Virus record (IMG/VR): IMGVR_UViG_2872164251_000001 | DNA: 46,293 bases | Reading direction: 5' to 3' (one strand) | Source of the DNA: a virus | Taxonomy: Duplodnaviria > Heunggongvirae > Uroviricota > Caudoviricetes | Part shown: positions 3,018 through 30,978 of the stretch, one piece after another | Layout: every line of letters begins with the position of its first letter | How positions within the stretch are numbered: the first letter of the stretch is position 1 | Made by a program: the position numbers and the translations under genes | The notes under the pieces: model-generated | Told to the model about the DNA's origin: nothing | The model's database searches: none | Seen by the model: only the letters and a program-made list of their open reading frames with translations

Positions 3018-3908
3018 TCAGGCTGCCAGATCATCGTTTCCGATGGAAGCATAATAAGCTTTTTCTGCTTCTGCCGGAGGGATGTGGCCCAGCCTTTCCA
3101 GCAATCGTCGATTGTTATACCAGTCCACCCACGTTAGTGTGGCCAGTTCCACTTCTGCACGGTTTTTCCAGCTCTTACGGTGTATTACCTCCGCTTTGTA
3201 AAGACCATTGATGCTCTCCGCCATCGCGTTGTCATACGAGTCGCCTGTACTTCCTGTTGATGCCAGTAATCCGGCTTCCTTAAGCCGCTGTGTGTAGGCC
3301 AGCGATACATACTGAGAACCTTTATCACTGTGATGGACCGTGCCGGACGGTCGACGGGCCCATAACGCCTGCTCCAGTGCATCCAGCACGAATGTCGTTT
3401 CCATGGACGATGAGACCCGCCACCCCACGATGTATCCGGCAAACACATCAATGATGAACGCCACATAGACGAAGCCCCTCCATGTGCTGACGTAAGTAAA
3501 ATCAGCCACCCACAGCTGGTCAGGTCGTTCTGCCACGAACTGACGGTTTACGCGGTCGCCTGCGGCAACGGCTTTCCGGCTGATGGTCGTACGGACCTTT
3601 TTACCCCGGAGAACACCGGCAAGTCCCATAACCGCCATGAGACGTGCCACAGTGCATCTGGCCACTCTGATACCTTCCCGTAACAACTGACGCCAGACTT
3701 TACGCACACCGTATACCTTGTGATTTTCATCGTATACGCGCTGTATCTCTTTCTTCAGCCAGTCATCGCGCTGCGCACGGGCACTGCGTTTATCCGGATG
3801 ATGTCGCTGTTGCTGACAGTGGTAATACGTTGACGGGGCAATATGCAGTTCGCTGCATAGCGGTCCGACCCCGTACTGCTCACGCAGCTTATCCAGCAGT
3901 GGCATCAT
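3018..3908 (-). CDS. IS629-like OrfB transposase
   Basis: 296-aa IS3-family DDE transposase ORF overlapping OrfA. Confidence 0.8.
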
Positions 3909-4171
3909 TTTTTCCAGAGGCGGTCGAACTCCGCCTTCGCAAAATAAGCGGAAGCCTGGCGAAGGATATCGTTACTGCGGCGCAGTTCACGATTTTCACG
4001 CTCCAGCTCTTTCAGACGCTGACGTTCAGCGGTGGTGAGCCCTCCATCACCGCCCCCGGTATCCCGCTCATGCTGGCGAACCCAGACACGCAGAGTCTCC
4101 GGCGTACTTTCCAGAACCATACGGACTGCCCGTTGACGGACTTCGGGGGAAAAACGAGTATTTTTAGTCAT
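3905..4171 (-). CDS. IS629-like OrfA (shortened)
   Basis: [37 protein letters not shown]... Confidence 0.75.
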
Positions 4172-23186: not shown

Positions 23187-24518
23187 TTACTGGATGAATG
23201 ACATTTGATTAATATATTTTATCAATAACTCTCTGGGTGTAGTACTCCAAAAATTTAGGTGTTCATAATCAGTATAAACAGTGGTGAATTTTTTAAGTTC
23301 TTCATCACTTTTAGGGGCAAATCGCTCATTAAGAGTAATACTGTCTTTAATTATTCCGAAGAATACAATAGATATTTCAGGAATTTGCGATCTTCTCTCA
23401 TAAGAATAAGGTATTTCTTTTATGTTAAGCAGATCTGCTAAATGAGATATAGATTCTGCGGTAATTTCTTGTTTTAGTTTTTCCTTGTCACCAAAGCAAT
23501 GTATGAAGACAGCTACGACAAAGATCTTATTTATTAAAGGATCACTGCTTTTGTACTCATCGTCGTTTAATAGTTGAAAAATGTTAAGATTGCGTGAAAA
23601 AGTTTGTGTTTCACGTAAGGATAAGTTGGTTCGTTGAATTAAATCACGGATAAATCTACCAGATAACCTATTAATTTCATTTAATGATTTTGTCTTGTCT
23701 ACAAGGTAATTCCAATATATAACAGATGTTTTACATACGACGTGACCATTTATTAAACATGTGTCTGGAAGCGTGATGGTATATTTTATAAACTTGTCAA
23801 GATACTTTTGTGAGTTAATACTATAACCATAAATATGATTTATCGATGCTTTTAATTGTTCTGTGTTTGTAACTAAAATAAAAAAGACATTATTGATGTC
23901 AAAAATGTGTTTTATTGTTTCAATGACATTTGTTGAAAAACTCGGCTTACATCGGTCTAATTCATCAATTATAATTACTATCTTTTGACTTTCTGAAATG
24001 CTTTCGATGCAAGATTTAAGTGAATTTATGTTTTTCTCTGATTCCATATGGTCTTCAAGCAAATTTTCAATAGTCCCATCTATTGCTGCATTGCTTGCTT
24101 TCTTCATCGCATCTTGGAATTCTTCGGAAACTTCACTAGCCTCCTGTCGTAAAAACCAACCTGCACCAGCTTTTAGTACCGTTTTTAAACCAAAGCGAAT
24201 TGCAGGAAGAGATCTCTTAATGAAGTGTTGTTTTTCTTCCTCAGGTAAAATGCTGGCAATTGCAGAGGTTATGAGAAGTAATGGAGATTCTGCATGATCC
24301 CCTTTAAAGGCATCAATATAAACAACTTTAGATTCAGTTTCTTGCTCAATAATGAGATTTTTCAGTTTGATACTAAATTCTGTTTTCCCTGTTCCCCATG
24401 CGCCGTCTATTACCAGTGGTGAAATGTCTGCCTCTGGTTTTAGCAACTTGATGATATTTTCAGCGATGTTTCTGCGTTGGAACTCGTCACGTTCAGTGAA
24501 AGATAGTGTATCTAACAT
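23187..24518 (-). CDS. KAP-family P-loop NTPase (PifA-like), AT-rich moron
   Basis: Walker A GAWGTGKT, Walker B IIIDELDRC; 443 aa; much lower GC than flanks by eye; opposite strand to late operon. Confidence 0.75.
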   Translation of the reverse strand: MLDTLSFTERDEFQRRNIAENIIKLLKPEADISPLVIDGAWGTGKTEFSIKLKNLIIEQETESKVVYIDAFKGDHAESPLLLITSAIASILPEEEKQHFIKRSLPAIRFGLKTVLKAGAGWFLRQEASEVSEEFQDAMKKASNAAIDGTIENLLEDHMESEKNINSLKSCIESISESQKIVIIIDELDRCKPSFSTNVIETIKHIFDINNVFFILVTNTEQLKASINHIYGYSINSQKYLDKFIKYTITLPDTCLINGHVVCKTSVIYWNYLVDKTKSLNEINRLSGRFIRDLIQRTNLSLRETQTFSRNLNIFQLLNDDEYKSSDPLINKIFVVAVFIHCFGDKEKLKQEITAESISHLADLLNIKEIPYSYERRSQIPEISIVFFGIIKDSITLNERFAPKSDEELKKFTTVYTDYEHLNFWSTTPRELLIKYINQMSFIQ

Positions 24519-24814: not shown

Positions 24815-25141
24815 ATGCCTCATAACCCAAATACCTGGTTGGAGTTGGTCCAGAGCTGGTGGCGTGGAGACACACCGCTGGGCGCAGTGATTATGTCGAT
24901 TGTTATGGCTGGCTTGCGCATTGCATATTTTGGCGGTGGTGGGGGCTGGAAACGAAAAACGCTCGAGATTTTGCTCTGTGGTGCTCTGACGCTGACTTTT
25001 GCATCCGCTCTTGAGTATGTCGGATGGCCTAAATCTCTTTCTGTTGCCATTGGTGGCGGCGTTGGGCTAATCGGGGTCGATGCTATTCGTGGGGCTGCAA
25101 TGAGAGTAATCGGTAATAAGTTTGGTGGCTCTAAGGAGTAA
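24815..25141 (+). CDS. Putative holin (three predicted TM segments)
   Basis: Small hydrophobic protein immediately upstream of endolysin. Confidence 0.55.
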   Translation: MPHNPNTWLELVQSWWRGDTPLGAVIMSIVMAGLRIAYFGGGGGWKRKTLEILLCGALTLTFASALEYVGWPKSLSVAIGGGVGLIGVDAIRGAAMRVIGNKFGGSKE

Positions 25142-25144
25142 TTT

Positions 25145-25621
25145 ATGCAGGTACTAAATTCCCAGCGTAAAGCTTTCCTCGATATGGTGGCATGGTCAGA
25201 AGGAACGGATAACGGGCGACAACCGACACGTAATCACGGTTATGATGTTATTGTTGGCGGCGAACTGTTTACTGATTACTCTGATCACCCTCGCAAACTT
25301 GTCACGCTAAACCCCAAACTCAAATCAACAGCCGCCGGACGTTATCAGCTTCTTTCACGCTGGTGGGATGCCTACCGTAAGCAGCTTGCTCTGAAAGACT
25401 TCTCCCCCAAAAGCCAGGATGCTGTGGCACTGCAACAGATTAAAGAGCGTGGCGCTTTACCGATGATTGATCGCGGTGATATTCGTCAGGCTATCGACCG
25501 TTGCAGCAATATCTGGGCGTCGTTACCCGGTGCAGGTTATGGTCAGTATGAACATAAAATCGGTGATTTGATTGCCCGGTTTAAAGAGGCTGGTGGGGTG
25601 GTAAATGAAGCTGAGCTATAA
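25145..25621 (+). CDS. Endolysin (lambda R-like lytic transglycosylase), second copy
   Basis: About 90 percent identical by eye to the 8002-8478 R protein. Confidence 0.9.
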   Translation: MQVLNSQRKAFLDMVAWSEGTDNGRQPTRNHGYDVIVGGELFTDYSDHPRKLVTLNPKLKSTAAGRYQLLSRWWDAYRKQLALKDFSPKSQDAVALQQIKERGALPMIDRGDIRQAIDRCSNIWASLPGAGYGQYEHKIGDLIARFKEAGGVVNEAEL

Positions 25622-25997
25622 GCTGCTTATCGTTGGTTTCTTCGTTACTGTCATTGGTTCTTTCATCTGGTCGGCCAACCACTACTACAGCAAATATCAG
25701 TACGAAAAGAAACGTGCTGATGAGGCTGTACGAAATGCTGAATCAGCAACTGCCATTACCAATAACGTCCTGCAATCACTACAAATCGTCAATACAGTTC
25801 TGGAGGCTAACCAGCATGCAAAACAGCAGATCGCACTGGAGTCACAGAGAGCCCGGGAAGATATCAAAGTGGCTGTTGCGGATGATGATTGTGCTTCACG
25901 CCCTGTGCCTGATGTCGCTGCTGACCGGTTGCGGAAGTACGCGGACAGTATACGTGCAGGTTCCAACGATGCCGTTACCGACGAACCTGCTCGCTGA
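25605..25997 (+). CDS. Rz-like i-spanin
   Basis: N-terminal TM then coiled-coil-like segment, overlaps endolysin end. Confidence 0.7.
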   Translation: MKLSYKLLIVGFFVTVIGSFIWSANHYYSKYQYEKKRADEAVRNAESATAITNNVLQSLQIVNTVLEANQHAKQQIALESQRAREDIKVAVADDDCASRPVPDVAADRLRKYADSIRAGSNDAVTDEPAR

Positions 25998-26160
25998 AAC
26001 TCCACAGCCAGTTATACCCAATCCTCTGACTTATGGGGATAGTCTTAGTTTGAATGTAAGTCTGCTATCAGCACTGGGGCTATGTAACCGTGATAAGTCT
26101 GATCTTCGTAGGTTAGGAGAGCAAAAGTACAATCTGCATTTGAATAATAATATTCATTAG
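25882..26160 (+). CDS. Rz1-like o-spanin lipoprotein (overlapping architecture)
   Basis: MMIVLHALCLMSLLTGC lipobox, Pro-rich; starts inside Rz and extends past it. Confidence 0.5.
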   Translation: MMIVLHALCLMSLLTGCGSTRTVYVQVPTMPLPTNLLAETPQPVIPNPLTYGDSLSLNVSLLSALGLCNRDKSDLRRLGEQKYNLHLNNNIH

Positions 26161-26237
26161 GTGAAATATTATTATTTGACTGTTCTAGTTATTATGCATT
26201 TAGTTACAATACTCTCACTATTAACAGTGAGGTAAAA

Positions 26238-26792
26238 ATGAACGAAAATTATATTGCATATGAGACACTTGTAGCAAACCGTGCTGCTGCTGAGTGGGCT
26301 TGTTGGGCAATGATTGCATCTTGGGTGAGTGCTGGAGCTACTATTGTTACTTTGGTTTTGGCGTTCAAGGCATTGTTTACGTGGCGGGAACAAGAGAAAA
26401 CAAAAGTAAAAATAGATTTTAGGAATGCATTAAAGAAATTAAAGACAGCTCTATTATTTATGCCTGTCAATATTGACCCCGAGAAACTCAATGATGAACG
26501 AGAGCAAGTTATTGCGAAATGGCTATTTAAAGATGTAGATCTTATTAGTCAGCAAATTGAGTTGGGAGAAGAGAATGTTAAAAGATTTGATGAACTTTTG
26601 AGTATTTTCGATTGTTGCCAGTCTTCATGGTTTGCGACAGAGCACTTATTTGATAATACTGAGTTAGAAAAAGTTTGGCATGAGTTCGAGTCTAACTTTA
26701 ATAAATATATAAATGGTGGTGAGAGTAAGGATTTACTTATGAAAATGCTTGATAAGCTCATCTCTTCTAGATTTGTATTTGAGTCAAGATAA
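26238..26792 (+). CDS. Hypothetical membrane-anchored protein, AT-rich moron
   Basis: N-terminal TM WACWAMIASWVSAGATIVTLVLAF, GAGG RBS, imperfect palindrome CACTATTAACAGTG upstream. Confidence 0.55.
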   Translation: MNENYIAYETLVANRAAAEWACWAMIASWVSAGATIVTLVLAFKALFTWREQEKTKVKIDFRNALKKLKTALLFMPVNIDPEKLNDEREQVIAKWLFKDVDLISQQIELGEENVKRFDELLSIFDCCQSSWFATEHLFDNTELEKVWHEFESNFNKYINGGESKDLLMKMLDKLISSRFVFESR

Positions 26793-26842
26793 TTGCCTTT
26801 GAGTATTTTTCTTTATTATTTTACTTATTATAAATTTTTTAT

Positions 26843-27193
26843 ATGCCCCCTAGAATCCCAAAAGCCTGCCGTGTTCGCGGCTGCCGCTCTACAACCACGG
26901 ACCCGTCAGGCTACTGCGAAAGCCATAAAAGCGAAGGCTGGAAGCAATACAAGCCAGGACAATCTCGTCATCAGCGCGGTTATGGTTCGAAGTGGGATGT
27001 TATCCGCGTGCGTGTCCTGAAGCGTGACAAAGGCCTGTGTCAGCTATGTCTGCGTGCTGGTGTGGTGCGTGAGGCGAAAACTGTTGACCACATCATCCCT
27101 AAAGCGCATGGCGGCACAGATGCCGACAGCAATCTGCAGAGCCTGTGCTGGCCGTGCCATAAGGAGAAGACGGCCCGTGAACGGCTAAAGTGA
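26843..27193 (+). CDS. HNH endonuclease (terminase-associated)
   Basis: CxxC...DHIIPKAHGG...CWPCH motif, upstream of terminase. Confidence 0.8.
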   Translation: MPPRIPKACRVRGCRSTTTDPSGYCESHKSEGWKQYKPGQSRHQRGYGSKWDVIRVRVLKRDKGLCQLCLRAGVVREAKTVDHIIPKAHGGTDADSNLQSLCWPCHKEKTARERLK

Positions 27194-27309
27194 TCATAAT
27201 TCTCAACTGTCTGAGGGGAGGGGCGGGTCAAATCTCTGTGACCTGACGTCTTCCGGACTGCCCGCCCCATCGTTTTTTTATACCCGCGAAAAATGAAATT
27301 TAACCAGGA

Positions 27310-27813
27310 GTGCCGCATATGGCTGGAACGGCGGGGCGTTCCGGGCGTCGCCCTAAGCCAACGGCGCGCAAGGCGCTGGCCGGAAACCCCGGCAAGCGAG
27401 CCCTGAACAAAGATGAACCTGTTTTTACGCCCATCAAAGGTGTTGAGCCACCGGAGTGGTTCGCTGAAGAAGAGCTTCCTCTCGCCACGATCATGTGGCA
27501 ACTGACAACCAAAGAACTCTGCGGTCAGGGCCTGCTGTGCGTGACTGACCTTGCGGTGCTTGAGCGGTGGTGTGTGGCCTATGAGTTCTGGCGGCGTGCC
27601 GTGAAAAATATTGCCAGACAGGGCAACACCATCACCGGTGCAATGGGCGGTATGGTCAAAAATCCGGAGCTGACCGCCAAAAAAGAACAGGAGTCCGAGA
27701 TGAGCAGCACGGGGGCAATGCTCGGACTCGACCCCAGTAGCCGCCAGCGTCTGATTGGCCTGGCGGGGCAGAAGAAAGCCACTAACCCGTTTCTGAAAAT
27801 CATCGAGTCATGA
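27310..27813 (+). CDS. Terminase small subunit (P27 family)
   Basis: [22 protein letters not shown]-terminus. Confidence 0.75.
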
Positions 27814-29543
27814 GCCGGAAATCTTACCCCAACGTAAATGCTGCCAATCAGTATGCCCGTGATGTCGTGCGCGGAAAGATTGTGGCCTGCCAGTTTGTGA
27901 TTCAGGCCTGCCAGCGCCATCTTGATGACCTGATGGCGGAAAAAAGTAAGTCGTTTCGTTACCGCTTCGACAAGGAGCTGGCTGAACGGGCCGCGAAATT
28001 TATTCAGCTGTTGCCACACACCAAGGGGGAGTGGGCATTCAAGAGGATGCCCATCACGCTGGAGCCGTGGCAGCTCTTTGTGATCTGCTGTGCGTTTGGC
28101 TGGGTCAATAAAGGGTCCCGGCTGCGCCGCTTCCGGGAGGTGTATACCGAAATCCCCCGTAAGAACGGCAAATCGGCAATCTCTGCCGGTGTTGCCCTGT
28201 ATTGTTTTGCCTGTGATAACGAGTTTGGCGCGGAAGTGTATTCCGGTGCCACGACAGAGAAACAGACGTGGGAAGTCTTTCGCCCGGCGCGACTGATGTG
28301 TAAACGCACACCCATGCTGACGGAAGCGTTCGGGATTGAGGTTAACGCCTCAAACATGAACCGTCCGGAGGATGGGGCGCGGTTTGAACCGCTGATTGGT
28401 AACCCCGGTGATGGTTCATCACCCCACTGTGCGGTGGTGGATGAATATCACGAGCACGCCACAGATGCGCTTTACACCACGATGCTTACCGGGATGGGGG
28501 CGCGACGTCAGCCACTGATGTGGGCTATCACTACCGCCGGGTACAACATTGAGGGGCCGTGCTACGACAAACGGCGGGAAGTCATCGAGATGCTCAACGG
28601 TTCGGTACCCAACGATGAACTGTTCGGGATTATCTATACCGTTGATGAAGGTGACGACTGGACCGACCCGCAGGTGCTGGAAAAAGCCAATCCAAATATT
28701 GGCGTGTCGGTTTATCGCGAATTTTTGTTAAGTCAGCAGCAGCGTGCGAAAAATAACGCCCGTCTGGCAAACGTCTTTAAAACAAAACACCTCAATATCT
28801 GGGTGTCGGCGCGTTCGGCGTATTTCAACCTGGTGAGCTGGCAGAGCTGCGAGGATAAATCACTGACCCTTGAGCAGTTCGAGGGGCAGCCGTGCATTCT
28901 GGCCTTTGACCTGGCGCGTAAGCTGGATATGAACAGCATGGCGCGACTTTATACCCGCGAGATTGACGGTAAAACGCATTACTACAGTGTGGCCCCGCGT
29001 TTCTGGGTACCGTATGACACGGTGTACAGCGTCGAGAAAAATGAAGATCGACGGACAGCCGAACGCTTTCAGAAATGGGTGGAAATGGGCGTTCTGACCG
29101 TTACCGATGGTGCGGAGGTGGATTATCGCTACATCCTCGAGGAGGCCAAAGCGGCGAACAAAATCAGTCCGGTCAGTGAGTCACCCATCGACCCCTTCGG
29201 GGCGACCGGGTTGTCACATGACCTTGCTGATGAAGACCTGAACCCCATCACTATCATTCAGAACTACACCAACATGTCCGACCCGATGAAAGAGCTGGAA
29301 GCGGCAATTGAATCGGGGCGCTTTCATCATGATGGCAATCCCATCATGACCTAGTGTATCGGCAACGTGGTCGGCAAAACCATTCCGGGTAACGATGATG
29401 TGGTGAAGCCCGTCAAAGAGCAGGCGGAAAACAAAATTGACGGTGCAGTTGCGCTGATTATGGCGGTTGGCAGAGCCATGCTGTACGAGAAAGAAGACAC
29501 GCTGTCTGACCACATTGAGTCCTATGGGATCCGCTCGCTTTAA
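27810..29543 (+). pseudogene. Terminase large subunit with in-frame amber codon at 29352-29354
   Basis: ORF ends ...GNPIMT-TAG then the same frame continues CIGNVVGK...[22 protein letters not shown]... for 62 codons to TAA at 29541. Confidence 0.7.
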
Positions 29544-29554
29544 CTGAGGTAATT

Positions 29555-29737
29555 ATGATCATGCTGATTCTCGCGCCTCTGGTGGGCGTGCTGGGGGCGC
29601 TTTTGCTGGCGTATGGTGCCTGGCTGATTTATCCCCCGGCGGGGTTTGTTGTTGCCGGGGCGTTGTGCCTGTTCTGGTCGTGGCTGGTGGCGCGATATCT
29701 CGACCGTACACAGTCGTCTGTCGGCGGAGGTAAATAG
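29555..29737 (+). CDS. Small hydrophobic protein
   Basis: 60-aa ORF with TM-like segment between terminase and portal. Confidence 0.35.
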
Positions 29738-30978
29738 TGTTCTTTTCGGGATTATTTCAACGAAAAAGTGACGCACCGGTGACCACGCCAGCAGAGCTGG
29801 CGGATGATATCGGGTTGTCCTACGACACCTATACCGGAAAGCAGATCAGCAGCCAGCGGGCCATGCGACTGACGGCGGTTTTTTCCTGTGTCAGGGTGCT
29901 GGCGGAGTCGGTCGGGATGTTGCCCTGCAACCTGTATCACCTGAACGGCAGCCTGAAGCAGAGAGCCACTGGCGAACGTCTGCATAAGCTGATCTCCACG
30001 CATCCCAATGGCTATATGACGCCGCAGGAGTTCTGGGAGCTGGTGGTCACCTGTCTGTGCCTGCGGGGAAACTTTTACGCCTACAAAGTGAAAGCATTTG
30101 GCGAAGTGGCTGAACTGCTGCCCGTCGATCCCAGCTGTGTGGTACCGAAGCTTAACAGTAGCTGGGAGCCGGTCTATCAGGTCACATTCCCGGATGGCTC
30201 CGCGGATGTACTGAGCCAGGAGGATATCTGGCATGTGCGCACGCTGACGCTGGACGGACTGGTGGGGCTGAATCCCATCGCCTATGCCCGCGAGGCAATA
30301 TCGCTGGCGGCAGCGACCGAAGAGCACGGGGCCAGACTGTTCAGCAATGGCGCGGTGACGTCGGGTGTGTTGCGTACAGAGCAGACGCTGTCAGATCAGG
30401 CTTACGAGCGCCTGAAGAAAGATTTTGAGGAGCGTCACACCGGGCTTGGCAATGCTCACCGCCCGATGATCCTTGAGATGGGGCTGGACTGGAAGTCGAT
30501 GGCGCTGAACGCCGAGGACAGCCAGTTCCTGGAAACCCGCAAGTTTCAGCTTGAAGAAATCTGTCGTCTGTTCCGGGTGCCGTTGCACATGGTGCAGAAC
30601 ACCGATCGCGCCACTTTCAACAATATTGAAGAGCTGGGGCTGGGATTTATCAACTATTCACTGGTGCCGTATCTGACCCGCATCGAACAGCGGATCAACA
30701 CCGGACTGGTACGAAAAAGTAAGCAGGGCGTTTATTACGCCAAATTTAACGCCGGGGCGTTACTGCGCGGGGATATGAAGTCCCGTTTTGAAGCCTACGC
30801 CACCGGGATTAACTGGGGAATTTACTCTCCCAATGACTGCCGCGACCTGGAAGATATGAATCCGCGTCCCGGTGGTGATGTCTATCTCACACCGATGAAC
30901 ATGACCACGAAACCCTCCGATGGCAGTAAAGCCGGTAAGCAGAAGGATAACGCCAATGCAGACGAAACAACGTCTTGA
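29737..30978 (+). CDS. Portal protein (HK97 family)
   Basis: 413 aa, position after terminase, portal-like sequence. Confidence 0.8.
   Translation: MFFSGLFQRKSDAPVTTPAELADDIGLSYDTYTGKQISSQRAMRLTAVFSCVRVLAESVGMLPCNLYHLNGSLKQRATGERLHKLISTHPNGYMTPQEFWELVVTCLCLRGNFYAYKVKAFGEVAELLPVDPSCVVPKLNSSWEPVYQVTFPDGSADVLSQEDIWHVRTLTLDGLVGLNPIAYAREAISLAAATEEHGARLFSNGAVTSGVLRTEQTLSDQAYERLKKDFEERHTGLGNAHRPMILEMGLDWKSMALNAEDSQFLETRKFQLEEICRLFRVPLHMVQNTDRATFNNIEELGLGFINYSLVPYLTRIEQRINTGLVRKSKQGVYYAKFNAGALLRGDMKSRFEAYATGINWGIYSPNDCRDLEDMNPRPGGDVYLTPMNMTTKPSDGSKAGKQKDNANADETTS

Follow-up and report, generated by a model that had tools for sequence, protein, structure and literature searches.

The DNA analysed here, referred to throughout as the window, is a stretch of 46,293 nucleotides (nt) from a virus of the class Caudoviricetes (IMG/VR record IMGVR_UViG_2872164251_000001), and the element under study is a gene for a 184-amino-acid (aa) protein, an ATG-initiated open reading frame (ORF) at 26238–26792 (+). 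Upstream of this gene lie a lambda-type holin (PF05106), an endolysin (phrog_90) and the Rz/Rz1 spanins, and downstream an HNH gene (PF01844), a P27-type small terminase (PF05119) and the large terminase. An earlier sequence-only reading of the interval 26161–26842, which corresponds to the ORF together with its two flanking intergenic spacers, had placed an orphan, membrane-anchored protein between these same spanin and HNH/terminase neighbours, and had proposed that its gene is a moron inserted at the lysis-to-packaging junction. The neighbours are as that reading stated. The ribosome-binding site (RBS) that it assigned to the gene is also present, as a Shine–Dalgarno (SD) sequence, GAGG, read directly at 26229–26232 (+), 5 nt 5′ of the ATG, and where it had noted one upstream near-palindrome there are two, an AT-only repeat at 26143–26176 and a hairpin at 26214–26231. 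The base composition of the gene (35.5% G+C) departs from that of the lysis genes at 24815–26160 (48.6%) and of the region 26843–30000 (55.5%), again as had been described.

Hydropathy analysis of the 184-aa protein recovered the single N-terminal transmembrane (TM) helix and the charged soluble remainder expected from the sequence-only reading. Residues 20–47 (26295–26378, +) form the sole hydrophobic segment (grand average of hydropathy 1.63) and follow a conserved acidic N-terminal tail (residues 1–19) that is predicted to be periplasmic, while 34% of the other 137 residues are charged and the isoelectric point is 5.2. The topology check that had been suggested again gave a single TM helix, which is likewise predicted in 138 of the 142 family members compared. 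Across these members, lysine plus arginine averaged 4.1 in the 15 residues after the helix and 0.56 in the 15 residues before it, and the C-terminal side was the richer in 140 of the 142. Because of this charge bias and the positive-inside rule, the protein is predicted to adopt an N-out/C-in orientation in the inner membrane, with its helical bundle in the cytoplasm. Neither a lipobox nor a signal peptide was found in the 184-aa protein. Two AlphaFold runs (11 and 39 sequences) gave a predicted local distance difference test score of 75–76 and modelled a continuous helix over residues 3–73, followed by four helices packed as a bundle, with the lowest confidence at residues 81–110. Combined with the alignments and per-block entropy, these models delimit a predicted cytoplasmic helical-bundle domain encoded at 26379–26789 (+). 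A Foldseek comparison against the PDB returned nothing at E ≤ 0.001, and the only BFVD hit was a fragment of this very protein, from Salmonella phage 118970_sal3.

The description of the protein as an orphan did not survive profile comparison. Residues 15–183 match positions 2–165 of the 165-position profile of phrog_6169, a family of unknown function, with an E-value of 8.7e-74, and distant relatives of the protein match the same family. A profile search over 1.84 billion representatives recovered 122 clusters at 50% identity, nearly all of 130–200 aa, from Enterobacterales prophages, and a word-indexed search detected 184-aa homologues at 59–70% identity in Citrobacter, Kluyvera, Enterobacter, Klebsiella, Kosakonia and Serratia; a scan limited to a single genome for each species yielded just two loci. 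All named members are labelled ‘hypothetical protein’ and none carries a Pfam domain. The family alignment revealed conservation of the TM helix and of a juxtamembrane motif, W49-x2-Q52-E-K-x-K56-x-K58-x2-F61, together with P76, W131-ATEHLF, W147 and a C-terminal RFVF, and placed the greatest variability, including insertions and deletions, in residues 81–130. The 184-aa length is kept across 59–98% identity, and the ratio of non-synonymous to synonymous substitution rates (dN/dS) is 0.05–0.19 wherever dS is unsaturated, which indicates purifying selection on the protein. Since homologues preserve both length and amino acid sequence in this way, the ORF is a real gene.

A sister class, phrog_16957, has in common with phrog_6169 only the first ~45 residues, corresponding to the acidic tail and the TM helix. 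Its C-terminal part is unrelated, apparently beta-rich, ~130 aa in length and without a Pfam match. The class is represented by P0013 and about eight other representatives (the beta-class proteins are P0013, P0098, P0107, P0115, P0126, P0128, P0133 and P0134), and one member occupies the same slot in a Serratia prophage (L012, 6001–6534), preceded by the same type of leader.

The gene is carried on an AT-rich insert at 26138–26842, delimited by alignment with an empty-site prophage and by a dip in G+C content to 0.32–0.39. In that prophage, from E. coli 23CRST025 (L020), the HNH start codon lies within ~25 nt of the Rz1 stop codon, and its alignment with the window leaves ~700 extra AT-rich base pairs (bp), with similarity lost at ~26138–26176 and regained at 26843. 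The insert replaces the last Rz1 codons and ends directly before the HNH start codon. In relatives, the same slot holds alternative cargo, including Iss/Bor, YodC, GrlR, DUF2441, DUF6173 and an unrelated 197-aa TM protein. The 184-aa gene itself was detected in 26 of 5,426 complete E. coli genomes, while the HNH end of the same query was matched in 390 and some part of the lysis-packaging region in 2,465. Among 50,697 phage records, the sole phage with the gene is Salmonella phage 118970_sal3 (two records; 98.9% aa identity), whose holin and endolysin genes are not of the same length as those of the window, and no copy was found on plasmids. The stretch that separates Rz1 from the HNH/terminase genes is an AT-rich cassette, both optional and mobile.

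According to a definition reportedly due to Juhala et al. in 2000, a moron is an extra transcription unit between genes that are adjacent in related phages, and we compared the cassette with four properties: an intervening position of this kind, deviant base composition, a promoter of its own and a terminator of its own. The first is seen in the 23CRST025 empty site. The second is seen in the G+C content of the gene (0.355 against 0.486 and 0.555 on its two sides) and recurs in all 31 distinct homologue loci. The empty site, the alternative cargoes and the occurrence in E. coli genomes support the earlier proposal that a moron was inserted at the junction; the two findings named at the time as contrary to it, homology to a structural or lysis accessory protein and conservation as a core gene, were both looked for and neither was obtained.

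Two sets of loci served to survey the genomic niche of the family: nine contigs whose Pfam labels had been precomputed, and ~25 distinct IMG/VR loci covered by a census. Lysozymes, holins and spanins were the upstream neighbours and HNH genes and small or large terminases the downstream ones, with methyltransferases, Mom and ParB-like proteins as interspersed cargo. The holins beside family genes were of the P21 S (holin_2_1), HP1 (holin_2_3), lambda S (holin_3_1), holin_3_7 and holin_8 types, and the terminases of the Nu1/GpA, Terminase_2, Terminase_3 and P27 types; the homologues at 59–70% identity in Citrobacter, Serratia, Kosakonia and Enterobacter occupy the same slot, beside holins, endolysins and terminases of different types. 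The slot is thus nearly always kept while the lysis and packaging modules vary, and the gene is not tied to one lysis or packaging system. One member (L074) is flanked by tail tube and tape-measure genes, and tandem paralogues occur in Citrobacter and Enterobacter prophages. Family genes are all AT-rich relative to their own phage (34–47% against 42–57% G+C).

Several loci of this census showed further features around the family gene. At L054 (2853–5692), the lysis genes and the family gene are followed directly by the lambda-type tail genes U and V, which points to the remnant of a prophage whose head genes have been lost. Cargo close to family members at L061 (3370–3651), L013 (3331–5900) and L011 (6744–8204) includes an Acb2/Tad1-like protein (anti-CBASS/anti-Thoeris sponge fold, E 3.9e-17) and methyltransferase and glycosyltransferase-like genes, and a protein of ~485 aa (485–486) with a weak GT2 match recurs downstream of the family gene in three loci. 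Neither this downstream protein nor the 72-aa ORFs found upstream in two loci was accepted as an obligate partner, both being inconstant and without an informative domain. A KAP-family NTPase encoded elsewhere in the window was also rejected as a partner, since it is missing from the Salmonella phage that carries the 184-aa gene.

The leader of the gene was compared across the upstream regions of 26 distinct loci, with scoring of −10 elements on 22 distinct leaders. In the window, two −10-like hexamers are predicted, TATTAT at 26191–26196 (+), which aligns with an extended −10 (TGnGATAAT) of relatives, and TACAAT at 26205–26210 (+), a family-conserved promoter element from which transcription would start at ~26217. 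A hexamer that matches TATAAT at five or six positions and ends 24–27 nt before the ATG was present in 18 of the 22 leaders, whereas shuffled sets gave 0.97 on average and 6 at most. Its variants are TACAAT, TATAAT, TAGAAT and TAAAAT; most relatives have a −35-like GTGNCN at 17-bp spacing, and the Serratia homologue has a full promoter, GTGACA-17-TAAAAT, at the hexamer site.

Immediately downstream of this hexamer, the leader contains a conserved hairpin that is predicted to sequester the RBS. In the window it spans 26210–26234 (+), with the anti-SD arm CTCACT at 26214–26219, the loop at 26220–26225 and a 3′ arm, AGTGAGG, that includes the SD sequence; the CTCACT-N6-AGTGAG core (26214–26231) has a minimum free energy of −9.1 kcal/mol and a z-score of about −4 against shuffles. 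Across the family, the six bases 3′ of the −10 hexamer constitute the anti-SD (e.g. CACCTC, AACCTC or ACTCTC) and pair with the SD sequence over a 5–12-nt loop. The SD sequence was paired in all 19 scored leaders, and the four unscored leaders include two with the same hairpin. Pairs flanking the 4-nt SD core were formed in 83 of 120 cases, against 61 ± 5 with shuffled partners, and pair types vary among A-T, C-G, G-C and G-T. As a control, leaders of neighbouring genes reached z ≤ −2.5 in just 3 of 65 cases. The hairpin is found in second paralogues and not in the non-family cargo of the slot. A start ~7 nt past the hexamer (~26217) would leave the anti-SD arm untranscribed in RNA initiated at the gene’s own promoter, and the modelled probability that the SD sequence is unpaired is 0.40 for this own-start RNA and 0.05 for read-through RNA.

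At the 3′ end, canonical rho-independent terminators lie directly past the stop codon in the Citrobacter, Serratia and Kosakonia homologues (in Citrobacter and Serratia, CCGCCnnnGGGCGG followed by a T-run), and in Citrobacter a terminator lies upstream of the family gene as well. The window copy is without such a terminator: its AT-rich 3′ spacer (26793–26842, +) aligns with the terminator of the homologues and cannot form the hairpin, so that the terminator has decayed. Given the terminators of these homologues, the ancestral cassette possessed one. Because of these terminators and the leader signals, we read the family as having the classical terminator–promoter–gene–terminator layout of a moron, with the E. 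coli copy partly decayed.

The second near-palindrome upstream of the gene, the AT-only inverted repeat at 26143–26176, consists of the arms AATAATAATATT (26143–26154) and AATATTATTATT (26165–26176) around a 10-nt loop and spans the Rz1 stop codon. This repeat probably corresponds, in decayed form, to a conserved imperfect palindrome of ~40 nt that is found at the cargo-cassette junctions of many related prophages and is composed of GCATTACAG, a variable inner hairpin (e.g. GGCATTCACTGAGTGCC) and TGnGATAATGC. The outer arms of this junction palindrome are GCATTA/TAATGC and its inner arms covary; examples lie at L004 5925–5965, L022 2409 and 3927, L013 3274, L008 6583–6680 and L070 5021–5110, and in the window the element is decayed at about 26157–26198. 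In Serratia/Yersinia phages, the palindrome lies upstream of the small terminase and is followed by a terminator-ended unit of ~65 nt that resembles a short RNA. Candidate roles for the palindrome are those of a promoter, an insulator or a recombination site. Rfam returned no match at the cassette junctions, and the junction pattern was not enriched within the window. A Q-dependent late promoter of the pR′ type, with a Q-binding site and a sigma-dependent pause, was rejected as an identity for the junction element, which occurs with different Q families (Antiterm in Citrobacter, Phage_antitermQ in Serratia), and a sigma-54 promoter and a LexA box were likewise discarded for misfits of spacing and sequence.

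Database comparison of the 184-aa protein yielded nothing above threshold in Pfam, NCBIfam or PADLOC, and Pfam matched none of 50 family members; searches of the PDB by sequence and by profile were also negative. Two sub-threshold matches were recorded, to CARF_TM in PADLOC-DB v2 (5,027 models; E 0.017) and to SLATT_1 (E 0.0044; 17 bits against the NCBIfam cut-off of 41), and both are confined to the TM region. No lysis family was matched (Pfam; PHROG holins, antiholins and spanins). The remote-homology and structure comparison proposed in the sequence-only reading has thereby been carried out, and no known structural or lysis accessory homologue emerged from it.

Taken together, we tentatively favour the interpretation that the gene encodes a lysogen-expressed inner-membrane protein of phage exclusion or abortive infection, transcribed from its own promoter and occluded on late transcripts. 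In this model, the sigma-70 promoter with the −10 element TACAAT would drive transcription in the lysogen, and the resulting transcript, starting at ~26217 without the anti-SD arm, would be translatable. Late read-through RNA from the lysis genes would contain the arm and fold onto the RBS, and the protein would thus be produced in lysogeny and kept low during the late phase of its own prophage. The variable cytoplasmic bundle may then recognize a component of the incoming phage, and the conserved TM and juxtamembrane module may stop infection at the level of the membrane, through either exclusion or abortive infection.

An arms-race function is favoured for this family over a housekeeping one by its strong diversification, its tandem paralogues, the exchange of C-terminal domains, the spread over phages of several tail types and the apparent design for late-phase silencing. 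C-terminal domains are exchanged on a constant N-terminal module of ~45 residues, and the membrane-proximal part is conserved and the centre variable, traits that typify proteins engaged in an arms race. The family is tied to no one holin class. A further step, which we consider doubtful, would be to unite phrog_6169 and the beta-class in a new family of single-gene prophage immunity proteins, with an N-terminal/TM effector, exchangeable cytoplasmic sensors and self-sparing by a promoter-embedded anti-SD.

Several observations weigh against phage exclusion by a lysogen-expressed protein. The window copy has a poor −35 element and no detectable rho-independent terminator, and its start site at ~26217 is predicted from promoter geometry; a second −10-like element, an extended −10 in many relatives, lies 14 nt farther upstream, and transcripts initiated from there would include the hairpin. 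No similarity to known exclusion or defence proteins was found by sequence, profile or fold, and nothing on the protein or its family was found in the literature. Position by itself does not indicate defence, since non-defence cargo (Iss/Bor, YodC) also occupies the slot and since, in one locus, the Acb2/Tad1-like anti-defence gene is found a short way upstream of the family member. Most proteins known to block DNA injection do so from inside the membrane or from outside it, whereas the greater part of this protein is predicted to lie in the cytoplasm.

Among the other explanations, host-directed lysogenic conversion, in which the membrane-tethered bundle modulates a sensor kinase, a transporter or the envelope stress response to the benefit of the lysogen, appears unlikely; the Iss/Bor genes of the shared slot are cargo of this general type, and the features listed above in favour of an arms race run counter to a housekeeping role. 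An accessory role in lysis, as an antiholin-like protein or regulator of lysis timing made late with the lysis cassette, is less probable still. It would agree with the position of the gene, on the same strand and directly past the spanin genes in nearly all loci, with the membrane location of the product and with the lack of a terminator between the window copy and the late operon. However, the gene is missing from most prophages with the same lysis cassette, its neighbours include at least four unrelated holin families and in one case a tail operon, homologues have terminators on both sides and carry a promoter-like element of their own, the RBS is predicted to be occluded on late read-through RNA, and no holin, antiholin or spanin family was matched. 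To a similarly low degree we credit counter-defence during lytic growth, by a membrane-anchored inhibitor of the membrane-acting immune effectors of the host: the gene is located inside the late operon and an anti-CBASS/anti-Thoeris gene of the Acb2/Tad1 type shares its slot in one locus, but the protein has no similarity to known anti-defence proteins, and the self-contained promoter and terminator, with the predicted late silencing, point to expression in lysogeny. Finally, a non-functional remnant or spurious ORF in AT-rich junk, to which the probable defectiveness of the window prophage (an amber codon in the large terminase) and the decay of the cassette terminator and −35 element might be thought to point, is very improbable, given the constant length, the low dN/dS, the 122 clusters with conserved motifs and the conservation of RBS and leader.

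The prophage that carries the cassette could be placed by comparison with sequenced genomes. The region is 99.4–99.7% identical to chromosomal prophages in E. coli SEC470, fS58a and APEC E123; the SEC470 prophage adjoins tRNA-Thr, beside proA, and has HK97-type head genes and a contractile tail, and the HNH region is similar to that of Shigella phages SfII, SfIV and SfI. The window represents an SfII/SfV-like E. coli prophage. Its large terminase is interrupted by an in-frame amber codon at 29352–29354 (TGG to TAG, W515), giving ORFs of 514 and 58 aa, and because this codon splits the gene the prophage is probably defective in packaging. The SEC470, L027 and L042 prophages have TGG at this site and a 577-aa large terminase, and the IMG/VR locus L024 has the same amber codon. 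After the insertion, the HNH gene is without a recognizable SD sequence (26820–26845, aaattttttatATG), whereas in the empty-site prophage AGGA lies ~10 nt 5′ of the same start codon.

A second AT-rich moron (G+C 0.28–0.37) lies at 23187–24518 (−) in the window, between the Q antiterminator and the holin, and encodes a 443-aa KAP-family P-loop NTPase. Over its full length, this protein matches PDC-S20, a candidate defence system in PADLOC (E 1.5e-176), with weak matches to PifA and QatA. The moron is missing from the Salmonella phage that has the 184-aa gene, and the two are therefore unlinked. Rfam also identified an ALIL pseudoknot at 3834–3950 (−) (RF01497, 120 bits). Such a pseudoknot is the frameshift signal used by insertion sequences of the IS3 family, which places an insertion sequence element near the left end of the window.

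Prophage morons are a major source of lysogen phenotypes and of anti-phage defences, and most are without an assigned function. The 184-aa gene is of a known kind, a prophage moron for a membrane protein, while its protein family is uncharacterized and unrelated to known exclusion proteins. What had been one ‘hypothetical protein’ becomes a family of 122 clusters for which the niche is fixed, the topology predicted and the motifs conserved, and whose regulatory design can be tested. To our knowledge, a promoter-embedded anti-SD has not been described for a prophage cargo gene; were the design to operate as proposed, it would offer a simple and general way to express a potentially self-harmful gene in lysogeny and to silence it late. 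If the protein does act in phage exclusion, its mechanism would be of a single-gene, membrane-anchored kind with no relation to SieA, SieB, Rex or Imm. How prophage defences avoid self-targeting is a currently active question (e.g. PMC13043305, PMC11087260).

Comparison with known systems locates both the regulatory design and the protein. The leader resembles fold-back inhibition of translation of the IS10 transposase, said to have been described by Davis, Simons and Kleckner in 1985: in both, a complement to the RBS lies just upstream of the gene’s own start, and only transcripts that originate outside fold over the RBS. The IS10 case concerns a transposase, whereas here it is prophage cargo in a late operon, with a start predicted from promoter geometry alone. 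Abortive-infection effectors of the SLATT/Cap15 type share with the family an N-terminal membrane module and exchangeable C-terminal domains; SLATT proteins have two TM helices, in contrast to one in phrog_6169, which has no linked gene for a cyclase, a sensor or a nucleotide-signal enzyme. Bor/Iss, an outer-membrane lipoprotein involved in serum resistance, is lysogenic-conversion cargo in the same spanin-packaging slot of related E. coli prophages, but the 184-aa protein, without a lipobox, is predicted to be an N-out/C-in protein of the inner membrane. RexB of lambda (hhalign probability 0.27%) is multi-pass and has RexA as its partner, unlike the 184-aa protein with its single TM helix and no linked partner gene.

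Closer functional parallels are found among superinfection-exclusion proteins. The HK97 moron gp15, which reportedly confers superinfection exclusion (work attributed to Cumby et al., 2012), is a small single-pass membrane protein encoded in the late operon, and the position of the family member L074 in a tail operon is comparable; gp15 is, however, much smaller and unrelated in sequence, and most phrog_6169 members follow lysis genes. SieB of lambda and P22 (hhalign probability 0.15–0.18%) is a membrane-associated protein of ~185–190 aa, which the prophage expresses from a promoter of the gene itself, within a region also covered by lytic transcription. The phage needs self-sparing, and in the P22 record esc is annotated as protecting against self-exclusion by SieB. 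SieB differs in its location in the early-left region rather than at the lysis-packaging junction, and in self-sparing through an internal Esc product rather than through the RBS occlusion predicted here. SieA of P22 (hhalign probability 0.8%) has three predicted TM helices and the motif FxRYPxEAxxFNK (PMC10883804), in contrast to the single helix of phrog_6169, and lies at another genome position, while phrog_6169 is found in phages of several tail types. In this comparison, the 184-aa protein would work most like SieB, SieA or the HK97 gp15 moron, as a member of none of these groups.

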